From positions 8,300-72,299 of the forward strand of contig CABXJW010000001.1 of assembly GCA_902512585.1 (NCBI GenBank): DNA of 64,000 bases, given 5' to 3'. Within the stretch, counting starts at the first letter, position 1. Each line of letters begins with the position of its first letter. Positions 41,087 to 61,877 of this stretch are shown one piece after another. Made by a program: the position numbers and the translations under genes. Origin of the DNA: an uncultured Woeseiaceae bacterium (GTDB lineage Bacteria > Pseudomonadota > Gammaproteobacteria > Steroidobacterales > Woeseiaceae). The notes under the pieces were generated by a model. The model ran no database searches. It was not told the DNA's origin and was given only the letters and a program-made list of their open reading frames with translations.

Positions 41087-41114
41087 CTCAGAGTCGTCTG
41101 ATTAGAGATATTTC

Positions 41115-42107
41115 ATGCATTTTTCAAATCTTGCACCCGATCACCTGATAGCAGTAACTGTTGGTGAGCCAGCAGGTATCGGTCCAGATATTTGTCTTGA
41201 TTTAGTCAATCAATCATGGAGTGGCAATTTAATTATTATTGGCGATTCAGAAGTTATGAGGGAGAGGGCTAATTTATTAAATAAAAATATAGATTTTATA
41301 AAATGGTCTCCACAAGACAATGTTTTACAAAGATTACCGAAAAATACCCTATTCATATATGAAAAAAAATTTGCATCAGAGGTAATTTGCGGAAGCCCAA
41401 ACTATAAAAACTCCCAAACGTTAATTGATGGTTTAGCTGAGACAACAAAGCTCTGTTTGAATGGTCAATTTCAGGCGATAGTTACAGCACCTATCAATAA
41501 AAGTCTAATTAATGATGGCGGAATTGACTTCACAGGTCATACAGAATTTCTTGCAAATCAATCTAATATTAACAAACCGGTTATGCTATTAGCTGCAGGT
41601 AACTTTCGTGTTGCACTTGTAACAACACACATACCCCTATCAAAGGTATCCTCTAGCATAACAAAAAAATTATTAAGCGAGACCATAACGATTGTTAATC
41701 GTGACCTAAGAAAATATTTTAGGATTAATAATCCGCGAATACTGGTTTGTGGCTTAAATCCACATGCTGGAGAGAATGGTCTTCTTGGTAAAGAAGATCA
41801 AAAAATTATTGAACCAGTCATTAATGAATTTCAGTTAAGAGGTTATGATATTAAAGGACCTTTACCAGCGGACACCATATTCTTAAAGGCAAAGCAAGAG
41901 TGTGATGTGATTATCGCTATGTATCATGATCAGGGTCTACCTGTCCTCAAATTTGCTGGTTTTGGTGAGGCGGTTAATGTCACTTTGGGCTTACCTTTTA
42001 TTAGGACTTCAGTGGATCATGGTACGGCATTTGATATTGCTGGCAAAGGAATCGCCAGTTCAGAAAGCTTAATCTCTGCTGTAGAATTAGCCATCAGAAT
42101 GCTTTGA
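41115..42107 (+). CDS. pdxA: 4-hydroxythreonine-4-phosphate dehydrogenase
   Basis: GEPAGIGPD, GLNPHAGENG and TSVDHGTAFD motifs. Confidence 0.9.
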   Translation: MHFSNLAPDHLIAVTVGEPAGIGPDICLDLVNQSWSGNLIIIGDSEVMRERANLLNKNIDFIKWSPQDNVLQRLPKNTLFIYEKKFASEVICGSPNYKNSQTLIDGLAETTKLCLNGQFQAIVTAPINKSLINDGGIDFTGHTEFLANQSNINKPVMLLAAGNFRVALVTTHIPLSKVSSSITKKLLSETITIVNRDLRKYFRINNPRILVCGLNPHAGENGLLGKEDQKIIEPVINEFQLRGYDIKGPLPADTIFLKAKQECDVIIAMYHDQGLPVLKFAGFGEAVNVTLGLPFIRTSVDHGTAFDIAGKGIASSESLISAVELAIRML

Positions 42108-43273: not shown

Positions 43274-43290
43274 GAAATAAAGGAAAATCT

Positions 43291-44106
43291 TTGGCAATCT
43301 ATGCTATAGGGGATATTCAGGGTTGTTATGATCCTTTCAGAAGATTACTTGATAAAATAAAGTTTGATCCTGCTGAGGATCAGTTGTGGCTTACTGGTGA
43401 TCTAGTCAATCGAGGAGTGAATTCACTTCAAACATTAAGGTATGTAAAATCGCTTGGTAAAGCAGTAATTTCAGTTCTTGGAAACCATGATTTACATCTT
43501 TTAACATTACATTATGAATTAAAACCTATGGATAAAGGATCACTAACCCTTAGGAATGTGCTTGATGCGCATGATAGAGATTCACTGATGGAATGGTTGA
43601 GACGTAGACCATTAATTCACTATCAAAAACTAAACAATCGTATACTAGTTCATGCTGGAATTTATCCCACATGGAGTATTCAGGAGTCGATAGCATATGC
43701 ATGTGAGATCGAGAAATATCTGAGAGGCCCGAAATGTAAAGATCTATTAAGCCAAATGTACGGTGATGATCCAATATCCTGGTCCAATGAACTATCAGAA
43801 ATAGAACGATATCGATTTATAATTAATGCTTTTACACGAATGCGGTTTTTAGGAGCCAATAATACTCTTGATTTTAACTCCAAAGGTCCGATTCATAACC
43901 ATAAAGGGTATTTGTCACCTTGGTTTGATCAATTAAATAAGCAATGGATTAATACGACCATAATTTTCGGACACTGGTCAGCTCTTGGCTTAATGATTAA
44001 ACCTAATGTAATTTGTCTAGATACTGGGTATGTCTGGGGAGGAGAACTTACGGCCATTAATCTAGATAATACTTCCACCATAGTCAGAGTAAGTCAAATT
44101 AAATGA
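43291..44106 (+). CDS. apaH: Symmetrical bis(5'-nucleosyl)-tetraphosphatase
   Basis: Metallophosphatase motifs GDIQGC, GDLVNRG, GNHD. TTG start with AAGGAAAA RBS. Confidence 0.9.
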   Translation: MAIYAIGDIQGCYDPFRRLLDKIKFDPAEDQLWLTGDLVNRGVNSLQTLRYVKSLGKAVISVLGNHDLHLLTLHYELKPMDKGSLTLRNVLDAHDRDSLMEWLRRRPLIHYQKLNNRILVHAGIYPTWSIQESIAYACEIEKYLRGPKCKDLLSQMYGDDPISWSNELSEIERYRFIINAFTRMRFLGANNTLDFNSKGPIHNHKGYLSPWFDQLNKQWINTTIIFGHWSALGLMIKPNVICLDTGYVWGGELTAINLDNTSTIVRVSQIK

Positions 44107-44152
44107 ACCATCTTTAAAAATTTTGCATATAATAAAGAACTAAATATATCGT

Positions 44153-44677
44153 ATGGAGAAGACCATGAAATCCCTACTAGCTTTTAATTTTCAGGAATGG
44201 ATTGAGAAACATCGACACCTTCTTAAACCACCCGTATGCAATCAACAAATATTTGAAGATAATGACTTTATAGTAATGGTAGTTGGTGGACCCAACTCAA
44301 GAACAGATTATCATTATGATCCTGGTCCAGAATTCTTCTACCAACTGGAAGGTGACATGCTGCTCAAAACCATTCAAGATGGCAAACGAGTGGAGACGGT
44401 AATCAAAGAAGGTGAGATTTTACTCTTACCACCTACAGTTCCACATTCTCCGCAGAGATATGCGGACACTGTTGGGCTAGTAGTTGAGAGAAAGCGCTTA
44501 GACACAGAATTAGATGGTTTTTTATGGTTCTGTGAAAAATGTGATAATAAATTATATGAAGAATATCTGTATATCAATGACATTGTTGGTCAATTACCTC
44601 CAGTTTTCGATCGTTTTTACAGTTCTGAAGCCAACCGTACTTGCAAAAAGTGTGGCGAAATAATGGCTGCAGAATAA
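44153..44677 (+). CDS. nbaC: 3-hydroxyanthranilate 3,4-dioxygenase
   Basis: Cupin motifs GGPNSRTDYHYDPGPEFFYQLEGDM and LLPPTVPHSPQR. C-terminal rubredoxin-like CEKC...CKKC site, as in bacterial HAO enzymes. Confidence 0.85.
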   Translation: MEKTMKSLLAFNFQEWIEKHRHLLKPPVCNQQIFEDNDFIVMVVGGPNSRTDYHYDPGPEFFYQLEGDMLLKTIQDGKRVETVIKEGEILLLPPTVPHSPQRYADTVGLVVERKRLDTELDGFLWFCEKCDNKLYEEYLYINDIVGQLPPVFDRFYSSEANRTCKKCGEIMAAE

Positions 44678-44688
44678 CGAGAAAACTG

Positions 44689-45702
44689 ATGTTAAAGATA
44701 GATATTCATACTCACATATTGCCTAAAAGTTGGCCAGATCTAAAAGAGCGCTATGGTTATGGTGGTTTCATGCAACTAGAGCACTGTGGTTCTGGCTGCT
44801 CCAAGATGATGATGGATGGCAAGCATTTTAGAGACGTAGCGCCAAATTGTTGGGATCCTCAGGTGAGGTTGGAAGAATGTCATCAAACAGCTGTGGATGT
44901 TCAAGTTTTGTCCACCGTTCCAGTCATGTTCAACTATTGGGCCAAACCAAAGGATACAGCTGATCTGGCAATGATTTTAAATGATCACATTGCTGAGATT
45001 GTCACTAATCATCCCAAAAGATTTATTGGTCTTGCGACGCTCCCTATGCAAGATATTAATCTATCAGTTAAAGAGTTGGAGCGCTGTGTTAATACTAAAG
45101 GTATGGCTGGCGTTCAAATAGGTTCTCATATTAATGGGTGGAACCTTGATGACCCGCGGATTTTTCCAATTTTAGAAGCAGCGCAAGATTTAGACACTGC
45201 TATTTTTATTCATCCCTGGGATATGCTGGGTAGTGACCGAATGAATCTCTATTGGTTACCATGGCTAGTGGGTATGCCAGCGGAAACCGCTTTATCTATT
45301 TGCTCGATGATCTTTGGTGGCGTTTTCGAAAAATTACCTGATCTAAGAATTGCTTTTGCTCATGGAGGTGGTGCATTCCCGAGTATTATAGGAAGGTTAG
45401 AACATGGTTATAATGTTCGTCCTGATATTGTGGCAACCCATAATCAAAAGAATCCCCGAGATTACTTAGGAAAATTTTACGTAGATTCGCTGGTTCATGA
45501 ACCAGCTGTTTTAAATTATATGATTGATCTCTTTGGCGCAAACTGTATCGCTCTCGGGAGTGATTACCCGTTTCCACTCGGTGAAGACAAACCAGGAGAG
45601 ATGATTAAAAATATGCAATTAGATGACCAAACAAACCAATGGTTATATGCTGATACCGCTTTAAGATGGCTCAATCTCAATCGAAAGGACTATGAAAGGT
45701 GA
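44689..45702 (+). CDS. Amidohydrolase-2-family decarboxylase, 2-amino-3-carboxymuconate-6-semialdehyde decarboxylase-like
   Basis: IDIHTHILP metal-binding start, HPWD, AHGGGAFP and LGSDYPFPLGE motifs. The cluster context is the kynurenine pathway. I use ATG 44689; the ORF-track TTG 44641 overlaps the upstream gene. Confidence 0.75.
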   Translation: MLKIDIHTHILPKSWPDLKERYGYGGFMQLEHCGSGCSKMMMDGKHFRDVAPNCWDPQVRLEECHQTAVDVQVLSTVPVMFNYWAKPKDTADLAMILNDHIAEIVTNHPKRFIGLATLPMQDINLSVKELERCVNTKGMAGVQIGSHINGWNLDDPRIFPILEAAQDLDTAIFIHPWDMLGSDRMNLYWLPWLVGMPAETALSICSMIFGGVFEKLPDLRIAFAHGGGAFPSIIGRLEHGYNVRPDIVATHNQKNPRDYLGKFYVDSLVHEPAVLNYMIDLFGANCIALGSDYPFPLGEDKPGEMIKNMQLDDQTNQWLYADTALRWLNLNRKDYER

Positions 45703-46982
45703 ACAATTTCAACTTCGAAACAAATCGAACCTATGCTCAATCACTAGACAGTCAGGATGATCTGGCTCACTATCGCTCTGAATTTTTATTTCCAGAAGAT
45801 AAGAATGGCTATTCGTGCGTATATCTTTGTGGTAACTCACTTGGATTACAACCAAAAAAAGTTAAGCAGTACCTTAATGAAGAATTGGATGACTGGTCAA
45901 AATATGGAGTACATGGTCATACTAAAGCTGGTCGTCCCTGGCTAACCTACCATCTGCAAGCGAGGTCAGGATTCGCAGAGCTAACCGGAAGTCTAGAACA
46001 TGAGGTAATTGCTATGAATACCCTCACGGTTAATTTGCACATGTTAATGACTACTTTCTATCGACCAAATCAGAAGCGCTTTAAAATTCTCATTGAATCA
46101 ACCGCTTTTCCCTCAGACAGATTTGCTGCTGAATCACAAATTCGTTTACATGGATTTGACCCTAAGGAGGCATTGATTGAATGGCAACCAAAAGATGATG
46201 AATTATTCATAGATGACCTACAACAAATAATAGCTGCTCAAGGTGATGAGATTGCTTTAATACTTGTACCGGGTATTCAATATTACAGTGGCCAAGTTCT
46301 ACCTATGCAAGAAATTTGTCAATTGGCAAAGAGTGCGGGTTGCAATGTTGGTCTTGATTTAGCACATGCTATAGGAAATATAGAACTTGAGCTACATAAG
46401 TGGGCTCCTGATTTTGCTGCTTGGTGTACTTATAAGTACCTTAATGGTGGGCCTGGATCAGTTGGTGGAGCATTTATCCATGAAGCACATCATGGTAGTG
46501 CCGGTAATGAGCAACTACTTGGATGGTGGAGTAATGACCTTGAAAGTCGTTTCAAAATGGGGACAGAATTCGTCGCAGCCAAAGATGCAGATCTCTGGCA
46601 AGTCAGTAATCCACCGGTTTTCTCATTAACCCCAGTAATCACCTCTTTACATATGTTCCATGAAGCATCCTTTAATAAACTGCGTAAAAAATCTATTCAG
46701 TTAACCAATTATATGGATTTTTTAATTCAAGATTCATTTAAAGGCAGAATAGAATCTATCACCCCACCACTCAATCGAGGTTGTCAATTATCTCTAGTAA
46801 TCCTCGATAAAAGTCTCAATGGTAAAGCTATATTTAATTCCTTAACAGAAAAAAATGTAATTGGTGATTGGCGTGAACCCAATGTCATTCGGATGGCGCC
46901 CGCTCCGTTATACAACTCTTTTGAAGATGTTTTTGAGTTTGTAGAGCGCCTCAAAGAAGCGATTACTGAAAATAATATTTGA
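45699..46982 (+). CDS. kynU: Kynureninase
   Basis: 427 aa. PLP aminotransferase class V fold, YKYLNGGPGSVGG motif (PLP lysine region). GTG start overlapping the upstream TGA (GTGA). Confidence 0.9.
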   Translation: MNNFNFETNRTYAQSLDSQDDLAHYRSEFLFPEDKNGYSCVYLCGNSLGLQPKKVKQYLNEELDDWSKYGVHGHTKAGRPWLTYHLQARSGFAELTGSLEHEVIAMNTLTVNLHMLMTTFYRPNQKRFKILIESTAFPSDRFAAESQIRLHGFDPKEALIEWQPKDDELFIDDLQQIIAAQGDEIALILVPGIQYYSGQVLPMQEICQLAKSAGCNVGLDLAHAIGNIELELHKWAPDFAAWCTYKYLNGGPGSVGGAFIHEAHHGSAGNEQLLGWWSNDLESRFKMGTEFVAAKDADLWQVSNPPVFSLTPVITSLHMFHEASFNKLRKKSIQLTNYMDFLIQDSFKGRIESITPPLNRGCQLSLVILDKSLNGKAIFNSLTEKNVIGDWREPNVIRMAPAPLYNSFEDVFEFVERLKEAITENNI

Positions 46983-48331
46983 TGAGCTCAGCATCAATAA
47001 AAATCCTTGGCTCGGGCCTCTGTGGTAGTTTGCTTTCGATCATCTTAGCAAAAAGAGGATATGCAGTAGAGATTTATGAATCTCGGAGTGACCCCAGAAA
47101 ACTGAGTCAAGCGGCAGGAAGATCAATTAATTTAGCAATGTCCTCCAGAGGTATCAATGCGCTCAAGTATGCTGGTATCTTCGATCAAATAAAACCCCTT
47201 CTTATCCCAATGACAGGACGAATGTTGCATTTTAAAAATGGCGACAAAGAGCTCCAACCATATGGACAAAAAGAAGATGAAGTTATTTACTCAGTATCAC
47301 GTTTTAATCTCAACCAGATTTTGATCGAAACTGCTGAAAAAAAATATCATGTTGATATCAATTTTGAACATTCAGTTAAGTCTTATGATCCAGAAAATGC
47401 CAAGATTCAAATGCACTCACCAAAAAAAGAGTTTTTCCTGGAGGCGCAAAAAATATTAGTGGCTGATGGAGCTGGCTCAGTGATTCGTAAGTCCTTTAAT
47501 GATAGAGCACCAATCATGCCAAGCGAATCTATTTTACCGCACAGCTATAAGGAGCTCACCATACCCGCAAATGATGATGGTAGCTTTCAACTGGAAAAAA
47601 ACGCCCTCCATGTTTGGCCACGGGGTCAATTTATGCTCATTGCACTCCCCAACCCTGCTGGCGATTTTACCTTAACGTTATTCATGCCAACAATGGGTAA
47701 AGATAGTTTTGCCGAATTATCCACAGATGCAGCTGTAACAGATTTCTTTGATCGTCACTTTGCTTCTGCCGTTCCACTCTTGCCAAATCTAATCCACGAA
47801 TTTAAAAATAATCCGACGGGAATATTAGGTACAGTAAGGTGTCGGCATTGGCATCAAGATGATAAATTACTTTTAATCGGTGATGCAGCTCACGCCTTGG
47901 TGCCCTTTCATGCCCAAGGAATGAACTTTGCTTTTGACGATTGCGTTGAATTAGATAAGGTTATTGGTCAACACGAACATAATTGGCTAGAGATATTCCA
48001 AAATTTCGAAGCTAATCAATTTGACAATGCCACTGCAATACAGGAGATGGCTTTAGATAATTATATTGAAATGCGCGATGGTGTTCTTGATCCAAAATTT
48101 GCACTAAGAAAAGAACTTTCCTTTGAATTAGAAAAACGGTTACCCAATCAATTTATTCCTCGATACTCAATGGTCATGTTTCATGAGAAAATTCCATACG
48201 CTGTCTCTTATCAACGAGGTGAAATACAAAAGAAATTACTCGCAGAGCTCACTATGGATGCTGAAAAACTGGAGGAGATAGACCTAAATTATGCTGAAAA
48301 AGTAGTTGCTACAAAATTAGCGCCGCTCTAG
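46982..48331 (+). CDS. kmo: Kynurenine 3-monooxygenase
   Basis: ILGSGLCGSLLSIILAKRG FAD motif, ADGAGS and GDAAHALVPFHAQGMN motifs. The ATG overlaps the kynU TGA by 1 nt. Confidence 0.85.
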   Translation: MSSASIKILGSGLCGSLLSIILAKRGYAVEIYESRSDPRKLSQAAGRSINLAMSSRGINALKYAGIFDQIKPLLIPMTGRMLHFKNGDKELQPYGQKEDEVIYSVSRFNLNQILIETAEKKYHVDINFEHSVKSYDPENAKIQMHSPKKEFFLEAQKILVADGAGSVIRKSFNDRAPIMPSESILPHSYKELTIPANDDGSFQLEKNALHVWPRGQFMLIALPNPAGDFTLTLFMPTMGKDSFAELSTDAAVTDFFDRHFASAVPLLPNLIHEFKNNPTGILGTVRCRHWHQDDKLLLIGDAAHALVPFHAQGMNFAFDDCVELDKVIGQHEHNWLEIFQNFEANQFDNATAIQEMALDNYIEMRDGVLDPKFALRKELSFELEKRLPNQFIPRYSMVMFHEKIPYAVSYQRGEIQKKLLAELTMDAEKLEEIDLNYAEKVVATKLAPL

Positions 48332-50389: not shown

Positions 50390-50464
50390 TAGTCAAGCTT
50401 GCAGAAATGCACCTCTGATGTCCAGTCAAAAACATAAAATTTATAGGTTTTTATGCCAAAAAAA

Positions 50465-50501
50465 AAGATCTGCATGACACCCATACAGATCTTCTTTTTT
50501 C
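50465..50501. terminator. Strong rho-independent terminator (bidirectional form) downstream of the 1215-aa gene
   Basis: AAGATCTG (50465-72) / CAGATCTT (50486-93) is a perfect 8-bp stem with a 13-nt loop. It is flanked by an A-run upstream and a CTTTTTTC tract downstream, so on the minus strand the stem is followed by T9. Confidence 0.7.
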
Positions 50502-50521: not shown

Positions 50522-53500
50522 TTAATCTAATGTAGCAACAACCTCACCATGAATTACTGATGGTTTTCCATCATTGAATAAACCAGTAGTCGGTATAAGA
50601 CCGATTGAGCCGGCATTATCCTCGCCATTCATGTCCTTTGGTCCAAGCATCTGGATATCACTAAATGGTGGCAAATCTTCCGCAGTCTTGGAATAGCTTA
50701 ACGTACCGAGTGCCGCATCCTTTTTGGCCAACCATTGTTCACCCTCTAATGCTTTCACTTTATAGGTGGTATCCGAGCCTTTTTTGGTTAACACAGGATC
50801 AACACCATTATATGCTTCAATTGCAAAGCGTTGTACATAGCGTAAGTTATCATTCCATTCTCCATCATAAAATTCACCTAATGCTTCACCGGTAAGCACA
50901 TTGATTACTTGACCTGGTATACCCCAGAGCTCACCAAAACCACCGAACTCAAGTCTTACGTTCTTGCCGGCATCTTTTGTATAAGCGGTTGCATCATCTG
51001 GCACTGCATAGTAAAGAGTTTCTGGTCTCGCGAAATTCACATAATTGCCAGTGGCTGTATCTTTAGCATATTTCTTTCTTTGCCATTCTGACGCACCAAA
51101 CTCAAGCTCATACCAAGTGGTCGGACCTGTCCCTTCCCAAAAGGCATCCTCACAATAACGTGTTGCATTAGCACTAAAGACCGGATGCGTATCACGATAT
51201 TTATTGGTATCACTTAACGGTTTGGAATTATCAGACCGATTGCATTCTAATTTTGCTAATTCAGTAGCAATTTCAGCATCTGTTCCACCCAGCATTCGGC
51301 CTGTACGAATTCCCCAGGCCAATTCTTCAGTATAATATTCCTGAGGAATATTCTTGAAATTTGCTGTGCTGACATCGTTTTCTGTGATAGTGCTAGCAAA
51401 GCCCATGACATTACCTGACCCATCTTTAATACCCAAACCATCTGGAGTATAAGTCACGACATCTGTGGCTAAAATCCCAGGATAATGATATCCCTGTTGA
51501 TCTCCTGACTTAACATACTGCACAGTCGTTGGTATATGGGGGCTCACCACGGTACCAGGACTCCCATTAAGTGCTTTTGCCGCATCCGCAGTCGCATTTA
51601 TCGTAGCTGCACTGGTGCAGAAAAAGACACATTTGAATTTCGCTGGATACTCAGAAGGAGTTAATTCTTGGCGAGACTCAACCTGAATACCATAAGTTGC
51701 GGTATTATCTGTTGGATTTTGGAAAGTTTCAGTTGGGATATCATAGCCATTGCCGGTATCCGGTGACCAAGCCCAAAATCCACGTTCTTCCGTCCAAGCA
51801 TCTGCTGCATTTGCATCAGGTGCTGATTTCACCGTCAAGGTAACTCCGAAAGCATCCGCCGCATCTGATTGACTTTCAGCGGTATAAACATCCAAAGCAC
51901 CAAAATCAATATTGACATTCACCTGCTGTCCATCAGTAAAGAAGCTCGCAAATGAGGCTGTCATTGATTTTAGATCTTTTAAGATCGAGTTAAATTGAAC
52001 CTCAAATGCCGCATCGCCATCACTATTCATTGTGAAGGTTTCTGAGATAGCTTGTGTCAAGTTGACACTCACATTTGCAGCAGTACCGCCATCGTTATAA
52101 ATTCCACTGATAGTCGTTCCTTGCGCAATTGACATAGTCATAGCTGAGCCAGTTGATGACCAGGTGAATGGAAGAGTAAATGTGACTTGATCTTCTGTGC
52201 CACTTCGCGTGCTATCATCACCATGGGTTAATTTTACCGCGATATTGGTAGAACCAGAGCCACCACTATCTGGCAGGTTACCAAAATAACCCTTAACTTT
52301 AATAGGTCTGGCATTCGCTGTACCGTTAATTAATCCCAGGAGATTTTCAAGATCAATACCGGGTGCATCTCCAGTATCCTTACCCCATGGATAACCACCA
52401 AATGTTCCACTATTGACACCACCTAACCACCAGTACTGCACGTTTTCAGCCGCACTCGCACTCAGTGTATCACCTTGTAGATAATCTGTGACTTTGATCC
52501 GCCAGGTATTAAGTTGTAAACCATTCATCGCCGGTTGTACTTGCGTATAGGGATCCTCATAGGTCACTGACATTGCCGCTAAGTATTCGGTATTAGTGAA
52601 CGTAATCGGTGTGCCTAATGTGGTTTCATTCCAACCACTGGACCAATCAATGGACTTAGTAAAGGTCCAGGTTGCATTGGCTTTACTATAACTACCTTCA
52701 TACTCACGCTCAGCCGCAGGAAAACCAAGACTTTGATAAGCACTTCCCCATCGATCATCATTCCCGTTGATCCAGCTTACCATGGTCAATTTATCTAAAT
52801 CATTTAAAGCAAGATAACTCTTAGTATATTTAGTGACTCGCTGGTTAGCAGCAGCAATTTTGATTTGTAACGCAGGACCTGTCTCACCAGCAAACTGCTC
52901 TTTCGTCCAAACCGTATCAGCATCCCATAGACCTGGATTTTCCCAATCATCCACATAGATATTCCAGTAATCTGCCCAGCCAAATAGCTCGACATCATTG
53001 CCATCCGCATCTTCAACTGTGGCATTCATCGGGAATGCCGCTTGGCCAGATAACGTGGCTCTGGTCCCATCCACATTATAAACGCCATAGCGGTGAATAT
53101 TTTTCTGAGCATCAGAGTCCTTCAATGAATAACAAGTCTCATCAGTAGTCAGGCCAGAATTTGAATCAGGCAAAGTTACCGCTGTGCTGCCTGGTATAAA
53201 AAAGCCTTCCGCACTCATACTTGAATCTTCAAAATCCAATGTTGCAGCTGAAATTACTTTACTGCAATAGACCGCAGCATCACCATTATCGATTGAAAAT
53301 CCAGACATAACTTCCATTTCAACCCATTCCTGATTAGGGTAAGATCCCACCTCATAACCAGTAGTATCCACTGTAACCCCTTCAATCTTGTCGCCTGAAT
53401 AAGATAATACAGTTCTTAAGGGCGCATCATTCATACGATAATCAACATAGGTAATTTGTCCACCTGAGGCTTTGATCCTGGCCCCACCTGCTGAATTTCC

Positions 53501-54169
53501 AGCTAGCATCAAACACCCTGCTTCTAATTTATCTTCGGTACTGCCTGGAAACTCTGGGCCACACATATCTTGATTTTCACCCAGCGCGAATGACATTTGC
53601 ATATCAAATAAACCAAACTGAGAAGTCGCCGATGGCGGTGATGTAGTCGTCATTTTAATGTAAACCGTTATGGCTGGTGAATAAGCATCTGTCATTGTCG
53701 CTAACATCGCTGGCGACATATCCTTTGCCCAATCTTCCAATTCTGGCGCCAATTCAACCCAAGCATTAGCAATTTGTGGTGAACTATTATTAGCACGGGT
53801 TACGTTTGCATAGGCCACTGTGACTGTTTTCGCAGTACTGCCGGTAGTTCCCGATTCAGATTTTTTTGTGCTTTGTGCACTTTGTGCCGATTTTGGTTTT
53901 GCTGCTGCTGCATCCGATGAACTCGTATCAGCTGATTTGCAGTCATCCTCATACAGAGAGATTTTATAAGGACCGCGATTAACCATTTCAGCAAAGCCCA
54001 TAGCATTCATCATACACATAATGAAATTGACCTCTTCTAGGGCATCATTAGCGGCATTATCAGAGACGAAAAAATCCACTGTATCTGATTCATAAGCAGT
54101 CTGCGCATTAAGTGAAAACGGTAGCCACACTATTAACATTAAAAATATATTTCGTACTAAATTACTCAT
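50522..54169 (-). CDS. Large (1215 aa) secreted protein of unknown function
   Basis: Uninterrupted ORF with AAGAGAG RBS. Sec signal peptide (IVWLPFSLNA/QT). Ser/Ala/Lys-rich linker at aa 79-115. The remainder is acidic and T/S/G/D/N/W-rich with scattered Cys. I recognise no catalytic or sorting motif. Confidence 0.7.
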   Translation of the reverse strand: MSNLVRNIFLMLIVWLPFSLNAQTAYESDTVDFFVSDNAANDALEEVNFIMCMMNAMGFAEMVNRGPYKISLYEDDCKSADTSSSDAAAAKPKSAQSAQSTKKSESGTTGSTAKTVTVAYANVTRANNSSPQIANAWVELAPELEDWAKDMSPAMLATMTDAYSPAITVYIKMTTTSPPSATSQFGLFDMQMSFALGENQDMCGPEFPGSTEDKLEAGCLMLAGNSAGGARIKASGGQITYVDYRMNDAPLRTVLSYSGDKIEGVTVDTTGYEVGSYPNQEWVEMEVMSGFSIDNGDAAVYCSKVISAATLDFEDSSMSAEGFFIPGSTAVTLPDSNSGLTTDETCYSLKDSDAQKNIHRYGVYNVDGTRATLSGQAAFPMNATVEDADGNDVELFGWADYWNIYVDDWENPGLWDADTVWTKEQFAGETGPALQIKIAAANQRVTKYTKSYLALNDLDKLTMVSWINGNDDRWGSAYQSLGFPAAEREYEGSYSKANATWTFTKSIDWSSGWNETTLGTPITFTNTEYLAAMSVTYEDPYTQVQPAMNGLQLNTWRIKVTDYLQGDTLSASAAENVQYWWLGGVNSGTFGGYPWGKDTGDAPGIDLENLLGLINGTANARPIKVKGYFGNLPDSGGSGSTNIAVKLTHGDDSTRSGTEDQVTFTLPFTWSSTGSAMTMSIAQGTTISGIYNDGGTAANVSVNLTQAISETFTMNSDGDAAFEVQFNSILKDLKSMTASFASFFTDGQQVNVNIDFGALDVYTAESQSDAADAFGVTLTVKSAPDANAADAWTEERGFWAWSPDTGNGYDIPTETFQNPTDNTATYGIQVESRQELTPSEYPAKFKCVFFCTSAATINATADAAKALNGSPGTVVSPHIPTTVQYVKSGDQQGYHYPGILATDVVTYTPDGLGIKDGSGNVMGFASTITENDVSTANFKNIPQEYYTEELAWGIRTGRMLGGTDAEIATELAKLECNRSDNSKPLSDTNKYRDTHPVFSANATRYCEDAFWEGTGPTTWYELEFGASEWQRKKYAKDTATGNYVNFARPETLYYAVPDDATAYTKDAGKNVRLEFGGFGELWGIPGQVINVLTGEALGEFYDGEWNDNLRYVQRFAIEAYNGVDPVLTKKGSDTTYKVKALEGEQWLAKKDAALGTLSYSKTAEDLPPFSDIQMLGPKDMNGEDNAGSIGLIPTTGLFNDGKPSVIHGEVVATLD

Positions 54170-54229
54170 AATTGACTCTCTTTGTTATCTTTTTCTTTTT
54201 TTAATCTTTGGTTTAAAATTTCTAAGAAT

Positions 54230-54499
54230 CTAGAGATCTTCTCTGGTTCTTACCACATCCATCTCTTTTGGTACTGCCAATCCCGAAATCGCTGGGGCAG
54301 CAGGTGGTGTTGCAGGTGGTGTTGCTGGAGGTGTTGCAGGAGGTGTTACAGGAGTTCCACCTTGTGGAGCTGGAGTTGCAGCTTCACCACCGCCACCGCC
54401 ACCGCCACATGCAGCGATAACAAACACCAATAGGCCAAGGGCCCATACTTTACTCTTTAAAAAACCACGTAACCAAACACCTTTAACTCGATCAACCAT
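54230..54499 (-). CDS. Mini-lipoprotein with Gly7 run and (PPAT)4 repeat linker
   Basis: 89 aa. Basic n-region, hydrophobic core, lipobox VFVIAAC. The mature part is G7-EAATPAPQGGTPVT-(PPAT)4-PAAPAISGLAVPKEMDVVRTREDL. Lies directly upstream of, and co-oriented with, the 1215-aa gene. Confidence 0.6.
   Translation of the reverse strand: MVDRVKGVWLRGFLKSKVWALGLLVFVIAACGGGGGGGEAATPAPQGGTPVTPPATPPATPPATPPAAPAISGLAVPKEMDVVRTREDL
54302..54349 (-). repeat. Four tandem 12-nt units encoding PPAT
   Basis: aggtggtgttgc / aggtggtgttgc / tggaggtgttgc / aggaggtgttac on the plus strand. A (caccgc)n tract encoding Gly7 follows at about 54386-54406. Confidence 0.85.
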
Positions 54500-54687
54500 C
54501 TCTAACTCTCCAAAAAAAATTTTTAAAACTGATATTTGTGTATTTCAATTTTAAAATTTAGACTAATTCTAATAAATTTATTAACTTATAACGTAAACCT
54601 ACCATTTACAACTTACACCTTTTGTTTGTTTGTTTCAAATTCAGCTAAACTCTTATAAAATTAATATTTTAAAATCTAAAAAAACTC

Positions 54688-56766
54688 ATGCACTCCAACC
54701 AACTGCACAAAGAAACCAGTCCTTATTTATTACAGCACAGTAATAATCCAGTAAATTGGTTACCGTGGAATGAAAAAAGCTTAAAAAAGGCGCTTGCCTT
54801 AAATAAGCCTATTCTGCTCTCTATTGGTTATTCGGCATGTCATTGGTGCCATGTAATGGCACATGAATCATTTGCTAATCCAGCGATAGCAGAAATAATG
54901 AACAAACTTTTCATCAATATTAAAATTGATCGCGAGGAGCGTCCTGATATTGATCAGATCTATCAGACTGCCCATCAAATTCTCACTCAGAGAACTGGTG
55001 GCTGGCCATTGACAATGTTCCTTGATCCGAAAACTCACCGACCTTTCTTTGGTGGCACGTATTTTCCTAATGAAGCTCGACATGGGATGCCAGCTTTTCC
55101 TGATCTAATCGAAAAAGTAGCCACTTACTACAATAACGAACAAGATGCCATTAGAGATCAAGGCAAAAAACTCAATGAGATCTTTAATAATTTAATGCCA
55201 AAAAATAATAATAAAATTATTGATGCTAAACCATTAAAAATAGTCAGAAATGAAATCGAAGCAAGTTTTGATAAGAAATATGGTGGCATCGGTATGGCAC
55301 CGAAATTCCCTCAAACTACTATTCTAGATAGTCTCTTACGTCATTGGCGAAAAACAGCATTCCAAATCGAACCAGATATTGAGGCTTTATTTTTATCTAC
55401 TCTGACTCTAACACGGATGGCTGAAGGTGGAATATATGATCAACTCGGGTGCGGTTTTTATCGCTATAGTGTGGATCAAAAATGGCAAATACCGCACTTT
55501 GAGAAAATGCTATATGACAATGGCCTGCTTCTGACTTTATATACCCATGCCTATTTAGCCACCGGTGATGAGTTATTTAAAAAAATCAGTGAAGAGACGG
55601 CTGCCTGGATATTAAATGATATGCAAGCCGCCGATGGTGGCTTTTATTCAACCTTGAATGCTGATTCAGAGGGATCTGAAGGAACTTACTATATTTGGGA
55701 TAATAATGAAATTGAAGCAGCCATAAAAAAAACAGACTTACCTTTAATCAGGGAGTATTTTGGCTTAGATAAAATAGCTAACTTTGAAAATAAATGGCAT
55801 CTCACAATTCAAACAAATGTAGAAACTTTAGCTAGGAAATTTAACTTAACTATTGCTCAAGTGAATACCATCATTCTTGAAGCTAAAAGCAGTTTAAAAA
55901 AAGAACGTAAGCAGCGTATTTTACCTTCACTGGATGATAAACAACTAACCGCTTGGAATGCCCTTGCTATAAAAGGTTTAGCTATTGCATCACGGGCATT
56001 CAGCAGAAAAGATATTATTGAAGAAAATAGCAAAGCCATCAATTTCATTAAAGATAATCATATGCACAATAATAGATTGATGGCTAGCTATAAAAAAGGA
56101 GAAGCTAAATTCTCAGCTTATCTTGATGATTATGCCTACCTTTTGGATGCATTGGTTGAGTCACTACAAACTCACTGGGATACTCAACATTTGGCTTTTG
56201 CAATTGAGTTAGCTGATCAGTTATTGGAATATTTTTATGATGAGATTGATGGGGCTTTCTTTTTTACCGCAAAAGATCATGAACAATTAATTTATAGACC
56301 AAAACCAATGACTGATGATGCAACTCCCTCTGGTAATGGCATTGCGAGTTTTGCCCTGCAAAGATTAGGTTGGCTACTCGGTGAAAGTAAATATTTAACT
56401 GCCGCTGAATCTACTATTAAATGCGCTTGGGACATGCTGACAACAGCACCACACGGTCATACATCACTGATCCATACGCTTGATGATTTTCTTGATCCGC
56501 CAGAAATAATCATCATAAGAGGGGATGTGAAATTGATCTCGGAATGGCAAGAGGCAACGAGGAAGATTTACGCACCGAAAAGGTTAGTATTCGCTATCCC
56601 TGACACTGAAAAATCATTACCACTATATTTAAACAGCCGCATACCAATAAAAGACAAAATAGTTGCTTATCTGTGCCAAGGAAGTCAGTGCTCACCACCC
56701 ATTACTTCATTTGAGGCTCTCATTAAACTTATTACTGAGTCACCGATACATCAACCAAAAGGCTGA
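54688..56766 (+). CDS. Thioredoxin-domain protein of the YyaL/DUF255 (SSP411-like) family
   Basis: 692 aa. [35 protein letters not shown] and [13 protein letters not shown]-terminal motifs, followed by an (alpha/alpha)6-like domain. Confidence 0.85.
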
Positions 56767-58010
56767 TCAATTGAGGCAGAAAAGTCCGTAAATAGTTTTG
56801 GTCCAGTTTCAGTCATATACAAACAGTCCTCTAACCGAACGCCGAATTCACCAAAAAGATAAATTCCTGGCTCATTAGAAAAGCACATACCAGGGGCTAA
56901 CTTAGTCGACTCACCTCGCACAAAATTAATTGGCTCATGTCCATCAATCCCAATACCATGCCCCAAGCGATGTGATAGACCTGGAGTCTGATAATCGGGT
57001 CCGTATCCGAGTTTAGTGTAAAAAGCCCTTACCACATCATCAATTTTACCTGCAGGTACTCCAACTTGAGCTGTTTCTAGAGCTAACTCCTGCCCTTGTT
57101 TTACAGTATTCCAGACTTGGCGTTGTTTTTTTGTAGGCTCACCAAAGACCCAAGAACGGGAAATATCTGATTCATAATCATGCACAGAGCATCCGCAATC
57201 CATTAAGATCATACCGCCCTCTTTTACTTGCTGGGGTTGTTTGGTGCCATGTGGATAAGCGCTGGCTTCATTTAATAATACTCCGGAAAACTGGACCGCA
57301 CCACCAAGCAACTGTGTAGCCTCACTCATCATAGACCCAATCTCCTGCGGACTCATATTTAAATGAATATTTTTGTATACGTAACGATAAGCTTCAAGCG
57401 TTATATCATTGGCTAATTGCATTAAAGCAAGTTCATTAGTTGATTTAAACATGCGGCAACCACGAGTAATATCTTTACCAGATACCAGTTCTGTTGTTGT
57501 AGTCATTCTAGCGATACCATCAACGATAAAATGACGTACCGTTTCTTCAATCGCTAATTTACCTCGCTTAATATCTCGGTCCTTTAAGATATCAACGACT
57601 ATTTTGAATGGATCTTCATGCTCATGCCAAGTTCTTACTTCAGCTTCAAATGCCATACTCTCTCTAACAGAGGGCTCTTCAAAATAGGGAGTAACAAAAG
57701 CAATATCACCTACTCTGGGAATAATCGCACCAGTGAATCGCTCTGAACGTCGCCACTTGACACCTGTAAAATAAATAAGTGCTGATCCCGCCTCTAATAG
57801 CAGTGCATCAATATTGTGAGTTTTCATTAATGATTGTGCTTTCAGGATGCGGGCTTTGCGCTCAGCCCCCGTGATTGGTTTGGCTTTTTGAGTCATATTT
57901 CTTAATGAAGTTATACTGTTAGTTTCACTGATAGCATTATAACCAATTGCTGGAGTTAACGATCCCATGGTCAGGGCTGTAGTAGCTTTTAAAAAGGATC
58001 TTTTATTCAT
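56751..58010 (-). CDS. M24-family Xaa-Pro peptidase with a twin-arginine-like (KR) export signal
   Basis: Creatinase/prolidase N-domain plus pita-bread fold with metal ligands ([35 protein letters not shown]). The N-terminus [17 protein letters not shown] resembles the Tat consensus. Confidence 0.8.
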
Positions 58011-58028
58011 AATTTAACCTTATCTATG

Positions 58029-60803
58029 TTAATTGATCATGGCACGTTCCCAACCAGAGATGGATTTTTTAAGTTGGTAAGGCGCCCAGAACTCATTATC
58101 TAACTTCATAGTAATAACATTCACTCTGCCATTCCATGAAACGACCTTTAATTTTACTGATGTTCGATCTTCTCTATTCTCAACTTGCTCAATAAAACTC
58201 TGAAGATTTGGCGTGTCTATACCATCAACAGCAATTATTCTCTGACCAATATTTAACCCATAACGTGTTGCCGGAGAACCATAATTACTAAACGCAACAT
58301 AGACACCAGAGGTATCGATACCACGTTTAGCTATGGCACGATGCGGAGCATGCAGATGCGCGCCAGCCCAAATTAAAACGTGATCAATATTTTTACCATT
58401 CAATAATGCGCTTGAAACAATAACTTCTTGTATAACATTTTGTCGCCACAAGGTTACTGTTACCTCTCTTGATTGACTGTATTTTTCATAGTCACGAAAT
58501 GATGTAACCAACTGACCATCAATAGCCAGTATTAAATCACCATTCTGAATCATTTCAGCCGCAGATGACCCCGATAGGCGATTATTGACAATAATGACTC
58601 GTCGCTTTTCACTTTGTTCTTCAAATTGACTAATCCAGTCATCAGATAAACCCAGTTTTCTGGCTGAAAATAGTGGAATATAACCAAGATCAAGCTCAAG
58701 AGAATACAGTGGTTTTTCTGCTTGAAATTGATCAATAAACTCATTAACTAACTCCGAACTTATACCTCGATTCATTTGATAGGATTCACCACCCGAACGG
58801 TATGAAAAACTTGTCCACAAAGCTTCAATCTGACCTTTTTTATCTGTTAACACGCCATAAATATCATCAGGCGCACTCACTAAATCAATGACCTCAATAT
58901 TCGAATCAGAAAAATTAATTGAGGGTGGCAAATTAAGTGGATCAACGGAGGCAACGGTGATTTGCTGATGAAATAACTGATGATCTAATTTGAGGCCAGA
59001 TAACCAGGAATTATCTCCAGCCTTAAGCTCATTCCTGCTAAATGTAGCTGCTCTTACCGGTGTTTGACCGATCAATTTTGGATCAAAACTTAACAGTGCC
59101 AGATTATGCAAAGGATGAATATATTCAACCCTTCCTGGGACTTCAAGAGATCCTGCAAACGTCAATCTAATATCACCTATAGCTACCGGAACAGTATTTC
59201 TATCTACAATAATTAATCCTCGAGTTTTATCAACTAAGACTCCCGTTCCATAATAATGCCGATTCATTATGCCTGCGACCGGGTAAGGAAGATCATAGCT
59301 TACATGTACGAGAGACTGATGAATGAAATTCTTTAATGGTTCTTTGTGCTCAATGAAAGATGCACTTCTTATTATCTGCTCTGCTTTATATGATCCAGTA
59401 TCTAGAGTCTCACATGACCAAGCATCATAGTTTTTTGCTCTACATATTTCACTCTCAAACCAAGTTCTATCAATTTCTACAGATCGCAAGACGCTATTCA
59501 CTGGATCTGAATACCTCACAAACCTCAAATTTATTTTATTTTTATCGGTTAAGGTTAATAGATAATCTTTGAAATCCTCTATGTTTGTAATAAGTTCACC
59601 ATCAACCTCAAAAATGACCGCGCCTCTTGGTACGCCAGACTTGGAGAGTGAATAGCCTGGGTCAGCGACATACATACCCATTATAGGTAAGTTGTAATGC
59701 CTAGCTTGTTGATAAGAGAAGTTATTAAATACGCTATCTCCAAACGTTAGATAAGCATCTGGGGTAATATCATGTAGATCAGTCACATTTATCATAAAAC
59801 GATAATTACTACCGCCACGATTTATCTCAATAGTTACATCCCGGCCTACGTTTTCATCTAAAATATCCGCTAAAGTAATAAAATTAGTAATCAAAATCTC
59901 ATTGATACGCAATAAAATATCACCCGGTTCAATAAATTTCGCAATTTCCGCATTATTAATGATTCTTTGTGCAACTAGCATACCTTCAGAAACATTGATA
60001 TTTTCTCGAAGCTGTTGCTCCAACTCCGATGAAAGTCCGAGTCGTCTGAGCTCATCAAAAGTTAAGCGCACAAATTCTGTTTGCAATGAACCGCGCTTCA
60101 CAACTTGATTCTGTTGAATCAATTTTAATGCTCGCTCGACCCTAGTGGGAGGAAAGAAGAAACTACTTGATGAATTATTATTTCCACCAGCATTCAAGGC
60201 CACCACCTCGCCATTAATATTGATTACTGGTGATCCTGATGAACCCCCTGAGGTTCCTGATGCCGCTTGATAATAAAAGGTATTAAAGTCATTATAATTA
60301 CCTCTTCCATAATCTGGGGCCTGGCGATCAAGCCTAGCAATAGTGCCAGCTAAAATAGAAAGCTTTTCACCTGCATCATTACCTATTACACGAATCTCTT
60401 GTCCAATTCTTGCAACTTCTGTGGCGAATTTTAACTCATTAGGATGAATATATTTAAGTTCTTTAGGATTATATTTAAATATACCGAAATCATGTACAGG
60501 ATCACGGTAAATAGGTTTCAGCTCAACCTCCTCATTATTCAAAAATAATGCTTCGGCCTTTACAGGACCCGGAGTGACCACATGACGATTAGTTATAATA
60601 AGACCAAGCTTTGCATCAACGACAAAACCAGTGGCTTGAGATGAAGAATTCCATTCCGTGTCAAAAGCTCTGGGACTGTCTATCTTGATACTAACGATTC
60701 CTGTGGAAACATCTGCTAATGTTTCCTTCCAGCTTTTTTCTTCAGCCTGAGAAACGCCACATGCCACAATTACAAAAAATAGAATAGTAGACTTAATTTT
60801 CAT
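58029..60803 (-). CDS. Nma111-like HtrA-family serine protease: lipoprotein with an active trypsin-fold domain, a degenerate second protease repeat and several PDZ domains
   Basis: 924 aa. Lipobox FFVIVACG. Triad context TNRHVV / DFGIFKY / GTSGGSSGSPV. A second repeat (GTGVLVDKTRGLIIVDRNTV) has no serine motif. PDZ-like segments (GDILLRINE, GDLILAIDGQ, GQRIIAVDG). Confidence 0.8.
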   Translation of the reverse strand: MKIKSTILFFVIVACGVSQAEEKSWKETLADVSTGIVSIKIDSPRAFDTEWNSSSQATGFVVDAKLGLIITNRHVVTPGPVKAEALFLNNEEVELKPIYRDPVHDFGIFKYNPKELKYIHPNELKFATEVARIGQEIRVIGNDAGEKLSILAGTIARLDRQAPDYGRGNYNDFNTFYYQAASGTSGGSSGSPVININGEVVALNAGGNNNSSSSFFFPPTRVERALKLIQQNQVVKRGSLQTEFVRLTFDELRRLGLSSELEQQLRENINVSEGMLVAQRIINNAEIAKFIEPGDILLRINEILITNFITLADILDENVGRDVTIEINRGGSNYRFMINVTDLHDITPDAYLTFGDSVFNNFSYQQARHYNLPIMGMYVADPGYSLSKSGVPRGAVIFEVDGELITNIEDFKDYLLTLTDKNKINLRFVRYSDPVNSVLRSVEIDRTWFESEICRAKNYDAWSCETLDTGSYKAEQIIRSASFIEHKEPLKNFIHQSLVHVSYDLPYPVAGIMNRHYYGTGVLVDKTRGLIIVDRNTVPVAIGDIRLTFAGSLEVPGRVEYIHPLHNLALLSFDPKLIGQTPVRAATFSRNELKAGDNSWLSGLKLDHQLFHQQITVASVDPLNLPPSINFSDSNIEVIDLVSAPDDIYGVLTDKKGQIEALWTSFSYRSGGESYQMNRGISSELVNEFIDQFQAEKPLYSLELDLGYIPLFSARKLGLSDDWISQFEEQSEKRRVIIVNNRLSGSSAAEMIQNGDLILAIDGQLVTSFRDYEKYSQSREVTVTLWRQNVIQEVIVSSALLNGKNIDHVLIWAGAHLHAPHRAIAKRGIDTSGVYVAFSNYGSPATRYGLNIGQRIIAVDGIDTPNLQSFIEQVENREDRTSVKLKVVSWNGRVNVITMKLDNEFWAPYQLKKSISGWERAMIN

Positions 60804-60815
60804 TTAACTTAATTC

Positions 60816-61877
60816 TCAGAAACGAAATGGTGTGCGATCAATATACATCTGAAATTCACCATCTTCGTACATAGGAAGATAAAACGTATCAGGGTCACAG
60901 GTATATGGAAATATTTCTGTATTGGCATTTCTTTTCCACTGTCTTCTCCTAATTGGCTGTCGCTCATAGTTTTCAGGATCATCAACAATGATTATGGCTG
61001 TTAGTGTCTGGTTATCAGTACTTAAACTATAACGTTCTTCTATAGTGGCATCCTCAGAAATTAGTTCCCCACGAAAATCTCGTATAGTTTTATCAAGTAA
61101 TGAAGTTTTAATTACTAGCTCACCATTAACCCAACTACCCACTGAAAAGCCCATTCTAGATGGTGGCATGAATTCACTTGGTGACTCTTTTTTCATCCAG
61201 ATACGCCTCACTTTTGCTTGATATTCATACAAAAAAGTATATCGGTCATCACTTGAAATAATTTCAAATGGGAAAGAATATGTGGCTAAGGCAGGTAATC
61301 CTATTGAAGTACATCTAACATCTGGCTGATCATAATAAGGTAAGTATTGCTCCAACCAATCTTTGCCACTCTGAGTTAATGACATTGTGTATTTTCTAAA
61401 ATCAAGCTCTTGCGTTGCCGTCCATATTCCAGAAATATCTCCAGCGGTTGCAGATGAAGTTAATGTTAAACCTGAATCTTCGTTTTTTTCTCGAACGGCA
61501 GACCAAGTTCCAGGATTTTCTTTTTGTGCTGCTGCCCCCTCCTGCTCATAACTTCCATTCATTTGATTGTTTTTAATTTTTCCTGTCATACGTCGGTTAA
61601 ATACAAAACCTCTTACATCACGACTATCTGCTATAATTTCTATATGATCTTTTTGAATATTAATTTCTACGGGCCCACCCTCAAGAAATGCTTGCCAGTC
61701 ATTCGCAGTTTTTTCAATCTCAAGTAATCCAACTAATAACCTCTGATCATCTTGTAATGAGAGAATCCAGCGGCCCTCTATGTCGGATGTCTCAGCCCGA
61801 AGGCTCATAGGTATTGAGATTAACAAAGCTAACATCAAGGTTACGATTAACGATTTGATACTTTTTATATTATTCAT
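60816..61877 (-). CDS. Exported protein of unknown function (353 aa)
   Basis: Signal peptide (ISIPMSLRA/ET). Two-part architecture separated by a Q/E/A/S-rich linker. The C-terminal part carries a G-x-S-V-G-x-W-x-N-G-E-L-V-I-x-T motif that I recall from uncharacterised proteobacterial proteins. Confidence 0.6.
   Translation of the reverse strand: MNNIKSIKSLIVTLMLALLISIPMSLRAETSDIEGRWILSLQDDQRLLVGLLEIEKTANDWQAFLEGGPVEINIQKDHIEIIADSRDVRGFVFNRRMTGKIKNNQMNGSYEQEGAAAQKENPGTWSAVREKNEDSGLTLTSSATAGDISGIWTATQELDFRKYTMSLTQSGKDWLEQYLPYYDQPDVRCTSIGLPALATYSFPFEIISSDDRYTFLYEYQAKVRRIWMKKESPSEFMPPSRMGFSVGSWVNGELVIKTSLLDKTIRDFRGELISEDATIEERYSLSTDNQTLTAIIIVDDPENYERQPIRRRQWKRNANTEIFPYTCDPDTFYLPMYEDGEFQMYIDRTPFRF

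Follow-up and report, generated by a model that had tools for sequence, protein, structure and literature searches.

Tethering of envelope proteins by lipoproteins is already well known. The closest described systems include very large tethered surface lipoproteins such as PulA, SslE and InvL (PMC12802150, PMC7857515), the Slam/type XI secretion system (TXISS)-dependent surface lipoproteins TbpB, fHbp, HpuA and NilC (PMC5449769, PMC9090332), and LptM (YifL), a mini-lipoprotein that forms part of the LptDE translocon (PMC10567701; bioRxiv 10.1101/2025.01.03.631273). Here we describe a two-gene cassette found within a 64,000-nucleotide stretch of DNA (hereafter, the window) from an uncultured Woeseiaceae bacterium (assembly GCA_902512585.1, contig CABXJW010000001.1, positions 8,300 to 72,299), in which a gene for a lipoprotein of 89 residues is followed by a gene for a secreted protein of 1215 residues. 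We consider it likely that the two products form a two-subunit envelope protein tethered to the outer membrane, that this protein originated when one lipoprotein gene underwent fission, and that its small anchor docks onto the large body in trans. We found no account of such a split lipoprotein in the literature searched; separate genes for the anchor and the body of a lipoprotein, with a short conserved peptide to reunite the products, appear to be an undescribed arrangement.

Both genes lie on the minus strand, the lipoprotein gene at 54230-54499 and the secreted-protein gene at 50522-54169, with a gap of exactly 60 nucleotides between them. Coordinates and sequence agree here with the initial annotation, an earlier reading of the window's sequence, which had reported a lipobox-containing open reading frame (ORF) of 89 residues, a 60-nucleotide gap and a 1215-residue ORF with its own Sec signal. 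The small protein reads MVDRVKGVWLRGFLKSKVWALGLLVFVIAAC-G7-EAATPAPQGGTPV(TPPA)4APA-ISGLAVPKEMDVVRTREDL; the repeat, previously given as (PPAT)4, is correctly written as (TPPA)4, or as three copies of PPAT followed by PPAA. At its N terminus (MVDRVKGVWLRGFLKSKVW-ALGLLVFV-IAAC, ending at Cys31) a positive n-region and a hydrophobic h-region precede a lipobox that conforms to the pattern [LVI][ASTVI][GAS]C, a layout that recurs in around 30 orthologous partners. The small gene can be divided into three parts:

54407..54499, minus strand: signal peptide and lipobox of the anchor (IAAC, Cys31); N-terminal region conserved in L001, L004, L008 and L009
54290..54406, minus strand: flexible stalk (residues 32-70), with Gly7 followed by a Pro/Thr/Ala linker that includes (TPPA)4
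54233..54289, minus strand: putative docking tail ISGLAVPKEMDVVRTREDL (residues 71-89, 19 residues), a conserved C-terminal peptide

The mature small protein is predicted to comprise 58 residues, made up of a lipid anchor, a stalk of ~40 residues and a C-terminal peptide of ~13 residues. By the +2 residue sorting (Lol) rule known from Escherichia coli, the glycine at position +2 would be expected to direct it to the outer membrane. Within the tail, the stretch GLAVPKEMDVVRT fits the short motif of the family, that is, a peptide found N-terminal to the body either in cis or on an upstream partner. A comparison of 14 tail codons between the window and a related locus (L004) identified three that were identical, seven synonymous changes and four non-synonymous changes. 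Since synonymous changes dominate, the tail peptide must be translated, and it is under purifying selection.

The initial annotation had asked whether the adjacency of the two genes is conserved. Gene tables and our own ORF scans of ~40 related loci from several proteobacterial classes show that it is kept in most of them. In nearly every split-type gamma- or betaproteobacterial locus, a lipoprotein gene ends just upstream of the large gene, as seen in Woeseiaceae, Porticoccaceae/SAR92 (including the cultured strain HTCC2207), K189A, SAR86, Azotimanducaceae, Burkholderiaceae, Comamonadaceae and Rhodoferax. The partners range from 43 to 994 residues in length and their middle is unconstrained in both composition and length: they measure 43 residues in a metagenome-assembled genome (MAG) of Comamonadaceae, 46-68 in other Betaproteobacteria, 87-109 in the Woeseiaceae clade, 156-167 in another gammaproteobacterial clade, and 487-994 in Porticoccaceae, K189A and SAR86, whose partners carry Cadherin, Big_9 and TSP_3 domains in the middle. 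The stalk itself is Pro/Thr-rich in the window, Ala-rich in L008 and Ser/Gly-rich in L006, and is built of whole domains elsewhere. What remains constant is the lipobox-Cys-Gly run at one end and the tail peptide at the other; the latter, defined over ~30 loci, has the consensus G-[FYLI]-x-[LIV]-P-x-x-[IVM]-x-V-[IVL]-[ER]-T, spans ~13 residues and lies 2-6 residues before the stop codon.

The long partners in L017-L031 share a module (‘GRVIDGPxSGAxVFxDLNGN…’), which has no Pfam annotation, and an Ala-rich helical region; a free-standing lipoprotein (L046:5719-7869) encoded ahead of a fused-type gene (L046/L047) has them too. A metagenomic contig opens with a stretch (L005:1-804) where the C-terminal part of an aldehyde-dehydrogenase-like ORF and the tail motif (…ISGVTLPSEMDIVRTKTTP*) share one reading frame; no lipobox was seen, and the explanation may be chimeric assembly or local rearrangement of a partner.

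Three tandem pairs of mini-lipoprotein and large protein are found in L006:1064-11027 and L007:219-6884, with lengths of 53+992, 55+1049 and 48+1038 residues. The bodies in these arrays are just 22-27% identical to one another, and each anchor carries its own, different tail. The pair has therefore been duplicated and has diverged as a unit, and the arrangement suggests that pairing in these loci is cognate-specific.

In other lineages the two parts form a single chain. Such fused members were identified in Deltaproteobacteria, Denitrovibrio, Deferrimicrobiaceae, Nitrospirae and Geoanaerobacter (L038, L041, L043, L044, P0135 from Geoanaerobacter pelophilus, WP_214169684.1, and ~100 others), and have the order signal peptide, lipobox-CGGGG, linker, ‘ALxVAxKVSVVDAK’, a spacer of 20-40 residues, an N-module (‘SDYxxDxTxVYV…VNEILCM’) and body. 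Split and fused forms are collinear: hhalign joins them with a probability of 100% (E = 2e-60 over 726 columns), and the alignment begins where the signal peptide of the split protein overlies the fused spacer. When a profile of the split-partner tails was run against 70 fused proteins, its top match fell at the N-terminal site after the linker in 45 of them (~11% would be expected by position), which we take as supporting evidence that the two peptides correspond. Together with the adjacency seen in most of the ~40 loci, these natural fusions strongly support the proposal in the initial annotation that a lipid-anchored flexible stalk partners a large exported protein.

A third architecture was found in P0200, P0240, P0246, P0250, P0255, P0258, P0263, P0271 and P0286, which have a Sec signal and N-terminal PF18998/immunoglobulin (Ig)-like domains, no lipid anchor, and the motif ‘(L/F)KVA(E/D)KVSVVDAK’ directly before the body. 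Since the motif is kept before the body where the lipid anchor is missing, it is a constant element of the body, with an interchangeable N-terminal module; in split systems it is provided in trans by the upstream gene.

Structural models of two family members were generated. For the large protein of the window, a 22-sequence alignment gave an AlphaFold model with a predicted local distance difference test (pLDDT) score of 64.7, while a 140-sequence alignment for the fused P0135 gave an AlphaFold2 model with a pLDDT of 88.1 and a predicted template-modelling score (pTM) of 0.86. Residues 1-27 of P0135, which hold the signal peptide and Gly linker, have pLDDT values < 50; the motif segment ‘ATALTVAGSV|SVVDAKADST’ (residues 31-50) reaches 93 and 85, the ten residues after it fall back to 62, and most of the body exceeds 90. 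The peptide equivalent to the tail is thus confidently placed on the body in the model of this fused homologue. The body is modelled in three parts: an N-module, small and helical; a long stretch of beta-strands, each of 9-21 residues; and a C-terminal part of mixed alpha/beta structure. Foldseek found nothing significant in the PDB for the first model; for the P0135 model, neither the PDB (best E 0.029, top-ranked template-modelling (TM) scores <= 0.12) nor BFVD (best E = 1.4e-3 with a probability of 0.23, TM <= 0.26) gave a significant match.

The mature large protein of the window has a mass of 128.5 kDa and an isoelectric point of 4.29, is rich in Ala, Thr, Gly, Ser, Asp and Asn, and contains 2.4% Trp and 10 Cys. 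Its gene has the following parts:

54098..54169, minus strand: Sec signal peptide of the body (residues 1 to ~24, ...SLNAQT|AYESD), positioned where fused homologues have their spacer
53936..54097, minus strand: N-module (residues 25-78, AYxxD..FYV..VNFIMCMM..C) with the Cys52/Cys77 pair; the most conserved part of the body, helical in the P0135 model
53825..53935, minus strand: Ser/Ala/Lys linker (residues 79-115), disordered in the AlphaFold model (pLDDT < 50), with a matching low-pLDDT stretch in the P0135 model
52535..53824, minus strand: first part of the beta-rich core (residues 116-545), with an invariant WRYGVY, Cys203/219 and Cys302/346
51800..52534, minus strand: clade-specific insertion of ~245 residues (residues 546-790), missing from most of the family
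50522..51799, minus strand: conserved C-terminal half (residues 791-1215 plus stop), with Cys847/851, Cys976/1006, GFGELWGIPG, YKVKALEGEQ and ...VIHGEV

The N-terminal cysteine-containing module and the Ser/Ala/Lys linker had both been picked out in the initial annotation, and hold up well: the two cysteines of the former are conserved and the latter is disordered in the model. The best-conserved regions of the body are the N-module and the C-terminal ~215 residues. A core of ~770-980 residues is common to the family, to which the clade of the window adds its insertion. The ten cysteines probably form five disulfides. Across the 140-sequence alignment, invariance is confined to Cys, Tyr, Phe, Gly and Pro positions and extends to no acidic residue or His, which is weak evidence that the body has a binding or structural function and not a catalytic one.

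The description of the large protein as an orphan did not survive wider searches. While a word-indexed search recovered 21 clusters at 90% identity, with relatives 97% to 28% identical to the query, an exhaustive profile search extended the family to 797 clusters at 50% identity (E <= 1e-3), 477 of them at E <= 1e-10. These include, within the Gammaproteobacteria, Porticoccaceae/SAR92 (among them HTCC2207), K189A, SAR86 and Azotimanducaceae; within the Betaproteobacteria, Burkholderiaceae, Comamonadaceae and Rhodoferax; and, further afield, Deltaproteobacteria, Denitrovibrio, Deferrimicrobiaceae, Nitrospirae, Desulfofervidus, Planctomycetota and the cultured Geoanaerobacter pelophilus. None of the 21 word-search clusters has a name or a Pfam domain, the closest relatives of the window protein are Woeseiaceae MAG entries labelled “hypothetical protein”, and look-ups of the clusters for a studied model organism returned solely “hypothetical protein” entries from metagenomes. 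The large protein had no matches in Pfam or NCBIfam (E <= 1), including models for autotransporter, repeats-in-toxin (RTX)/type 1 secretion or type 9 secretion/PEP-CTERM C-terminal features, and the PDB sequences gave none with either the window protein or the 140-sequence family profile (E <= 10). The PADLOC models of anti-phage defence systems likewise did not match, and the PHROGs models of phage proteins produced low-complexity or marginal matches only (E > 2e-3). The body family is therefore unannotated, with no known function or detectable fold relative, in line with the initial annotation, which could assign no catalytic, repeat, autotransporter, RTX or C-terminal sorting motif to most of the large protein.

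Taken together, these data point to the following scheme. The two subunits would be exported separately by Sec; the small one would be lipidated to carry an N-acyl-diacylglyceryl cysteine and sent to the outer membrane, and its C-terminal peptide would dock on the body in a non-covalent but stable manner. Docking would rebuild the architecture of anchor, linker, peptide and body that is one chain in Deltaproteobacteria, Nitrospirae and Geoanaerobacter, and the 128-kDa acidic, beta-rich body would thereby be held ~10 nm or less from the outer membrane by the ~40-residue stalk. For the window organism itself, we infer both the physical docking in trans and the targeting to the outer membrane. 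An outward, cell-surface orientation is an even call at present; it is favoured by the Cadherin, Big and TSP_3 stalk domains and the large size of the partners in sister lineages.

Several findings weigh against this scheme. No genes for an export machinery are linked to the pair, and nothing in the window accounts for the passage of either subunit across the outer membrane, should they be surface-exposed. DSSP labels the docked motif of P0135 as coil and not as a strand of a sheet; strict beta-strand complementation was accordingly not confirmed, and we describe the motif as an extended docking peptide. The per-sequence scores of the tail profile are weak, and the fused proteins in which it was placed are related to one another and not independent. 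Finally, in L013:4417-10333 and L014:4474-10359 two tandem bodies that are ~40% identical have an upstream partner for the first gene only, so that the second body either shares the anchor of the first or is untethered.

A more far-reaching version, which we put forward tentatively as one possibility, is that a body of 100-200 kDa with a new fold is completed or locked by the conserved C-terminal peptide of a modular anchor, whose size may lie anywhere between that of a 5-kDa lipopeptide and that of a 100-kDa cadherin/TSP3 stalk, and that pairs of cognate specificity, as suggested by paralogous bodies that have each retained an anchor of their own, form a coat or ligand-capture layer held at a distance that each lineage can tune. 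If true, this would be an undescribed two-component surface system common both in marine heterotrophs that are themselves abundant (Woeseiaceae, SAR92, SAR86, K189A) and in many anaerobes.

The best-surviving alternative to a docked anchor, and still an unlikely one, is that the mini-lipoprotein serves as a transient pilot or maturation factor, akin to a secretin pilotin or to LptM on LptD, which guides export, disulfide formation or outer-membrane targeting of the large protein and is then released. Small lipoproteins with such roles do exist, LptM being one (PMC10567701), and the five probable disulfides of the body require maturation. A mini-lipoprotein from L040 also gives a weak match to LptM, although this match is confined to the signal peptide and reaches 13.8 bits against a cutoff of 27.7 for the LptM model (NF047847), which the window protein does not match. 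A released factor fits poorly with the fused and PF18998-type relatives, in which the peptide is a covalent, permanent part of the polypeptide and is modelled as docked, and the Cadherin, Big_9 and TSP_3 domains carried by partners in other lineages suit a stalk and not a chaperone.

It is considerably less probable that the large protein is an integral outer-membrane beta-barrel with the small lipoprotein as its plug or partner, in the manner of LptD/LptE or an usher. The protein is indeed beta-rich, aromatic-rich and acidic, many homologues terminate in ...HGEVTMTF, where hydrophobic residues alternate and the last residue is Phe, and Foldseek gave weak matches to TonB-dependent receptors, VDAC, EspP and LptDE. 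These fold matches are all non-significant, however (E > 0.01, TM <= 0.14; best outer-membrane protein matches E 0.2-0.9), and the window protein itself ends in ...ATLD. Moreover, parts of the high-confidence model are helical or mixed alpha/beta, the conserved cysteines fall into five pairs, and the single-chain relatives are lipoproteins or have N-terminal Ig-like domains, which is atypical for barrels. These results speak against an integral barrel, if not in absolute terms.

We see scant likelihood that the genes are functionally independent neighbours, the small ORF being a generic or spurious mini-lipoprotein and the adjacency inherited synteny. The small protein is mostly low-complexity, and since lgt-thyA-folA synteny exists at clade level some of the local conservation is trivial; yet the adjacency outlasts all other synteny across classes, fusions exist, the pair was duplicated as a unit, and the tail is conserved at the protein level with mostly synonymous changes.

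The initial annotation had also remarked that the two ORFs share a reading frame (they are 330 nucleotides apart) and are separated by two stops, TAG and TAA, which is correct as a description but, given that the large gene has its own signal and that two of the three L006 pairs differ in frame, is a coincidence at the DNA level, albeit one that echoes a real ancestral fusion. That a single gene has been broken by in-frame stops, as a recent pseudogene, a sequencing artefact or a case of programmed read-through, is the least credible explanation of all, for although the shared frame and the single-gene ancestral state would suit it, the large ORF comes with a ribosome-binding site of its own and with a full Sec signal at the very place of the spacer in fused homologues, the split is kept from Betaproteobacteria to Gammaproteobacteria, the frame is not conserved (two of the three pairs in L006 are offset by +1, and intergenic lengths vary), and a 97%-identical relative from an independent assembly has the same two ORFs.

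The non-coding parts of the two-gene unit are as follows:

54500..54687, minus strand: promoter/5′ region of the unit, 188 bp, 20% GC, shared with a divergent DsbH/YyaL-like gene
54170..54229, minus strand: intergenic spacer, 60 nucleotides, A-rich, carrying the ribosome-binding site of the large gene (AAGAGAG)
50458..50500, minus strand: intrinsic terminator, with a 19-bp stem, a 5-nucleotide loop and a U-run

The AT-rich character previously noted for the upstream region is evident from its base composition; it contains a sigma-70-like match at 54548-54519 (a consensus match only) and a GGAGAG ribosome-binding site ahead of the small ORF. As no hairpin was found in the spacer, the small and large genes are probably co-transcribed. 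The strong terminator that had been proposed at the end of the unit is real: it folds at -22.7 kcal/mol (z = -6.5), none of 200 shuffled sequences folds equally well, and a simple consensus scanner overlooked it.

The cassette lies, as had been described, between lgt, its downstream neighbour, and a divergent upstream gene of the DsbH/YyaL-like thioredoxin type. Among the loci compared, lgt-thyA-folA synteny is limited to the closest clade; we accordingly dropped the idea of a functional tie to lgt through lipoprotein maturation, and the lgt neighbourhood is simply positional. Neighbourhood analysis of the examined loci found no universal operon partner beyond the pair. Genes for alpha/beta-hydrolase, esterase, PhyH and M48 proteins recur within sub-clades only, and multihaem cytochrome neighbours in L046 were judged coincidental. 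In eight loci (L024:10079-11206 on the minus strand, L021, L022, L027, L028, L029, L030:302-1123 and L032) the pair adjoins a gene for a protein of ~375 residues with a signal peptide, an aromatic-rich composition and the look of an outer-membrane beta-barrel, without a Pfam or NCBIfam match. In seven loci this gene lies downstream in convergent orientation, while in SAR86 it precedes the pair and shares its strand; its product could be a membrane partner or translocon. No homologue was found in the window, and a plasmid tblastn search with this protein gave no informative result.

Elsewhere in the window, an lptD-surA-pdxA envelope-biogenesis cluster is present at 37590-42107 on the plus strand (Pfam LptD, SurA_N/Rotamase and PdxA), which identifies the region as core chromosome and not an island. 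At ~43290-48331 (plus strand) there is a kynurenine/nicotinamide adenine dinucleotide (NAD)-type cluster, with genes for a 3-HAO/cupin protein, Amidohydro_2, a kynureninase-like aminotransferase and a flavin adenine dinucleotide (FAD) monooxygenase, which is convergent with folA-thyA-lgt and syntenic in relatives. A gene at 58029-60803 (minus strand) codes for a 924-residue protein with Trypsin_2 and several PDZ domains, one of the Tricorn type; this is an unusually large HtrA/Tricorn-like periplasmic protease, and its gene adjoins an M24 peptidase gene at 56751-58010. A 353-residue ORF without a Pfam match (60816-61877, minus strand) is kept beside the same genes in loci of the Woeseiaceae clade.

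The fused, split and anchor-swapped forms amount to a natural experiment that defines the docking element, and suggest a portable peptide-protein docking pair with a peptide of ~13 residues. The family spans ecologically dominant marine bacterioplankton as well as sediment bacteria, with ~800 clusters that lack a Pfam or NCBIfam model, so that defining the family and solving a structure would give an annotation to thousands of “hypothetical proteins” and could bring to light a major envelope component of uncultured marine Gammaproteobacteria. Cultured carriers, namely HTCC2207 and Geoanaerobacter pelophilus, make the proposed split lipoprotein testable.

How, then, does the cassette compare with known systems? 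In mode of action it comes closest to the large tethered surface lipoproteins, yet it belongs to none of the known systems compared here. Like PulA, SslE and InvL, which depend on type II secretion, it would use an N-terminal acylated Cys and a long flexible tether rich in Gly, Pro and Thr to keep a very large exported protein at the outer membrane, and the window mini-lipoprotein gives weak NCBIfam matches to the N-terminal anchor/linker of SslE and fusolisin. It differs from them in that its anchor and tether are made as a polypeptide of their own, which would dock in trans, and a search of Pfam and NCBIfam (NF037973) for SslE/M60-like or pullulanase homology of the body gave a sole match, of 11.1 bits against a cutoff of 3000, to the linker of the small ORF. 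With the Slam substrates it has in common a lipobox Cys, a flexible, Gly-rich peptide for anchoring and a soluble body rich in beta structure. TbpB chains were among the weak Foldseek matches of the first model only (E >= 0.05, TM < 0.1; absent with the P0135 model), which gives no support for the TbpB-like fold of a handle and an 8-stranded barrel, and the L040 mini-lipoprotein weakly matched the N terminus of fHbp. The body of the cassette is, however, 5-10 times larger than Slam substrates, the two-gene architecture is missing from Slam systems, and no DUF560/Slam gene was present in the neighbour annotations of the examined loci.

LptM resembles the small subunit in having a few dozen mature residues and a short conserved peptide that binds a much larger envelope protein. 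LptM, though, binds an integral barrel through its N-terminal region, whereas the conserved element of the cassette is C-terminal and its partner is apparently soluble, and the two are not homologous. An S-layer-like coat was one of the putative surface roles suggested in the initial annotation, alongside substrate capture and a phage-receptor shield. The body is unlike typical S-layer proteins in being Cys-rich, and the ten conserved cysteines count somewhat against a classical protein of this type.

The nearest parallels in logic come from systems in which a membrane-anchored, modular stalk of variable length holds a large outer subunit via a small, dedicated docking element, as in the SlaB stalk and SlaA canopy of Sulfolobus and in cohesin-dockerin scaffoldins. 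The likeness extends to the stalk-like Cadherin/Big/TSP_3 domains carried by partners in other lineages. There is no sequence or fold relationship between these systems and the cassette, whose docking element would be a peptide of ~13 residues and not a domain.

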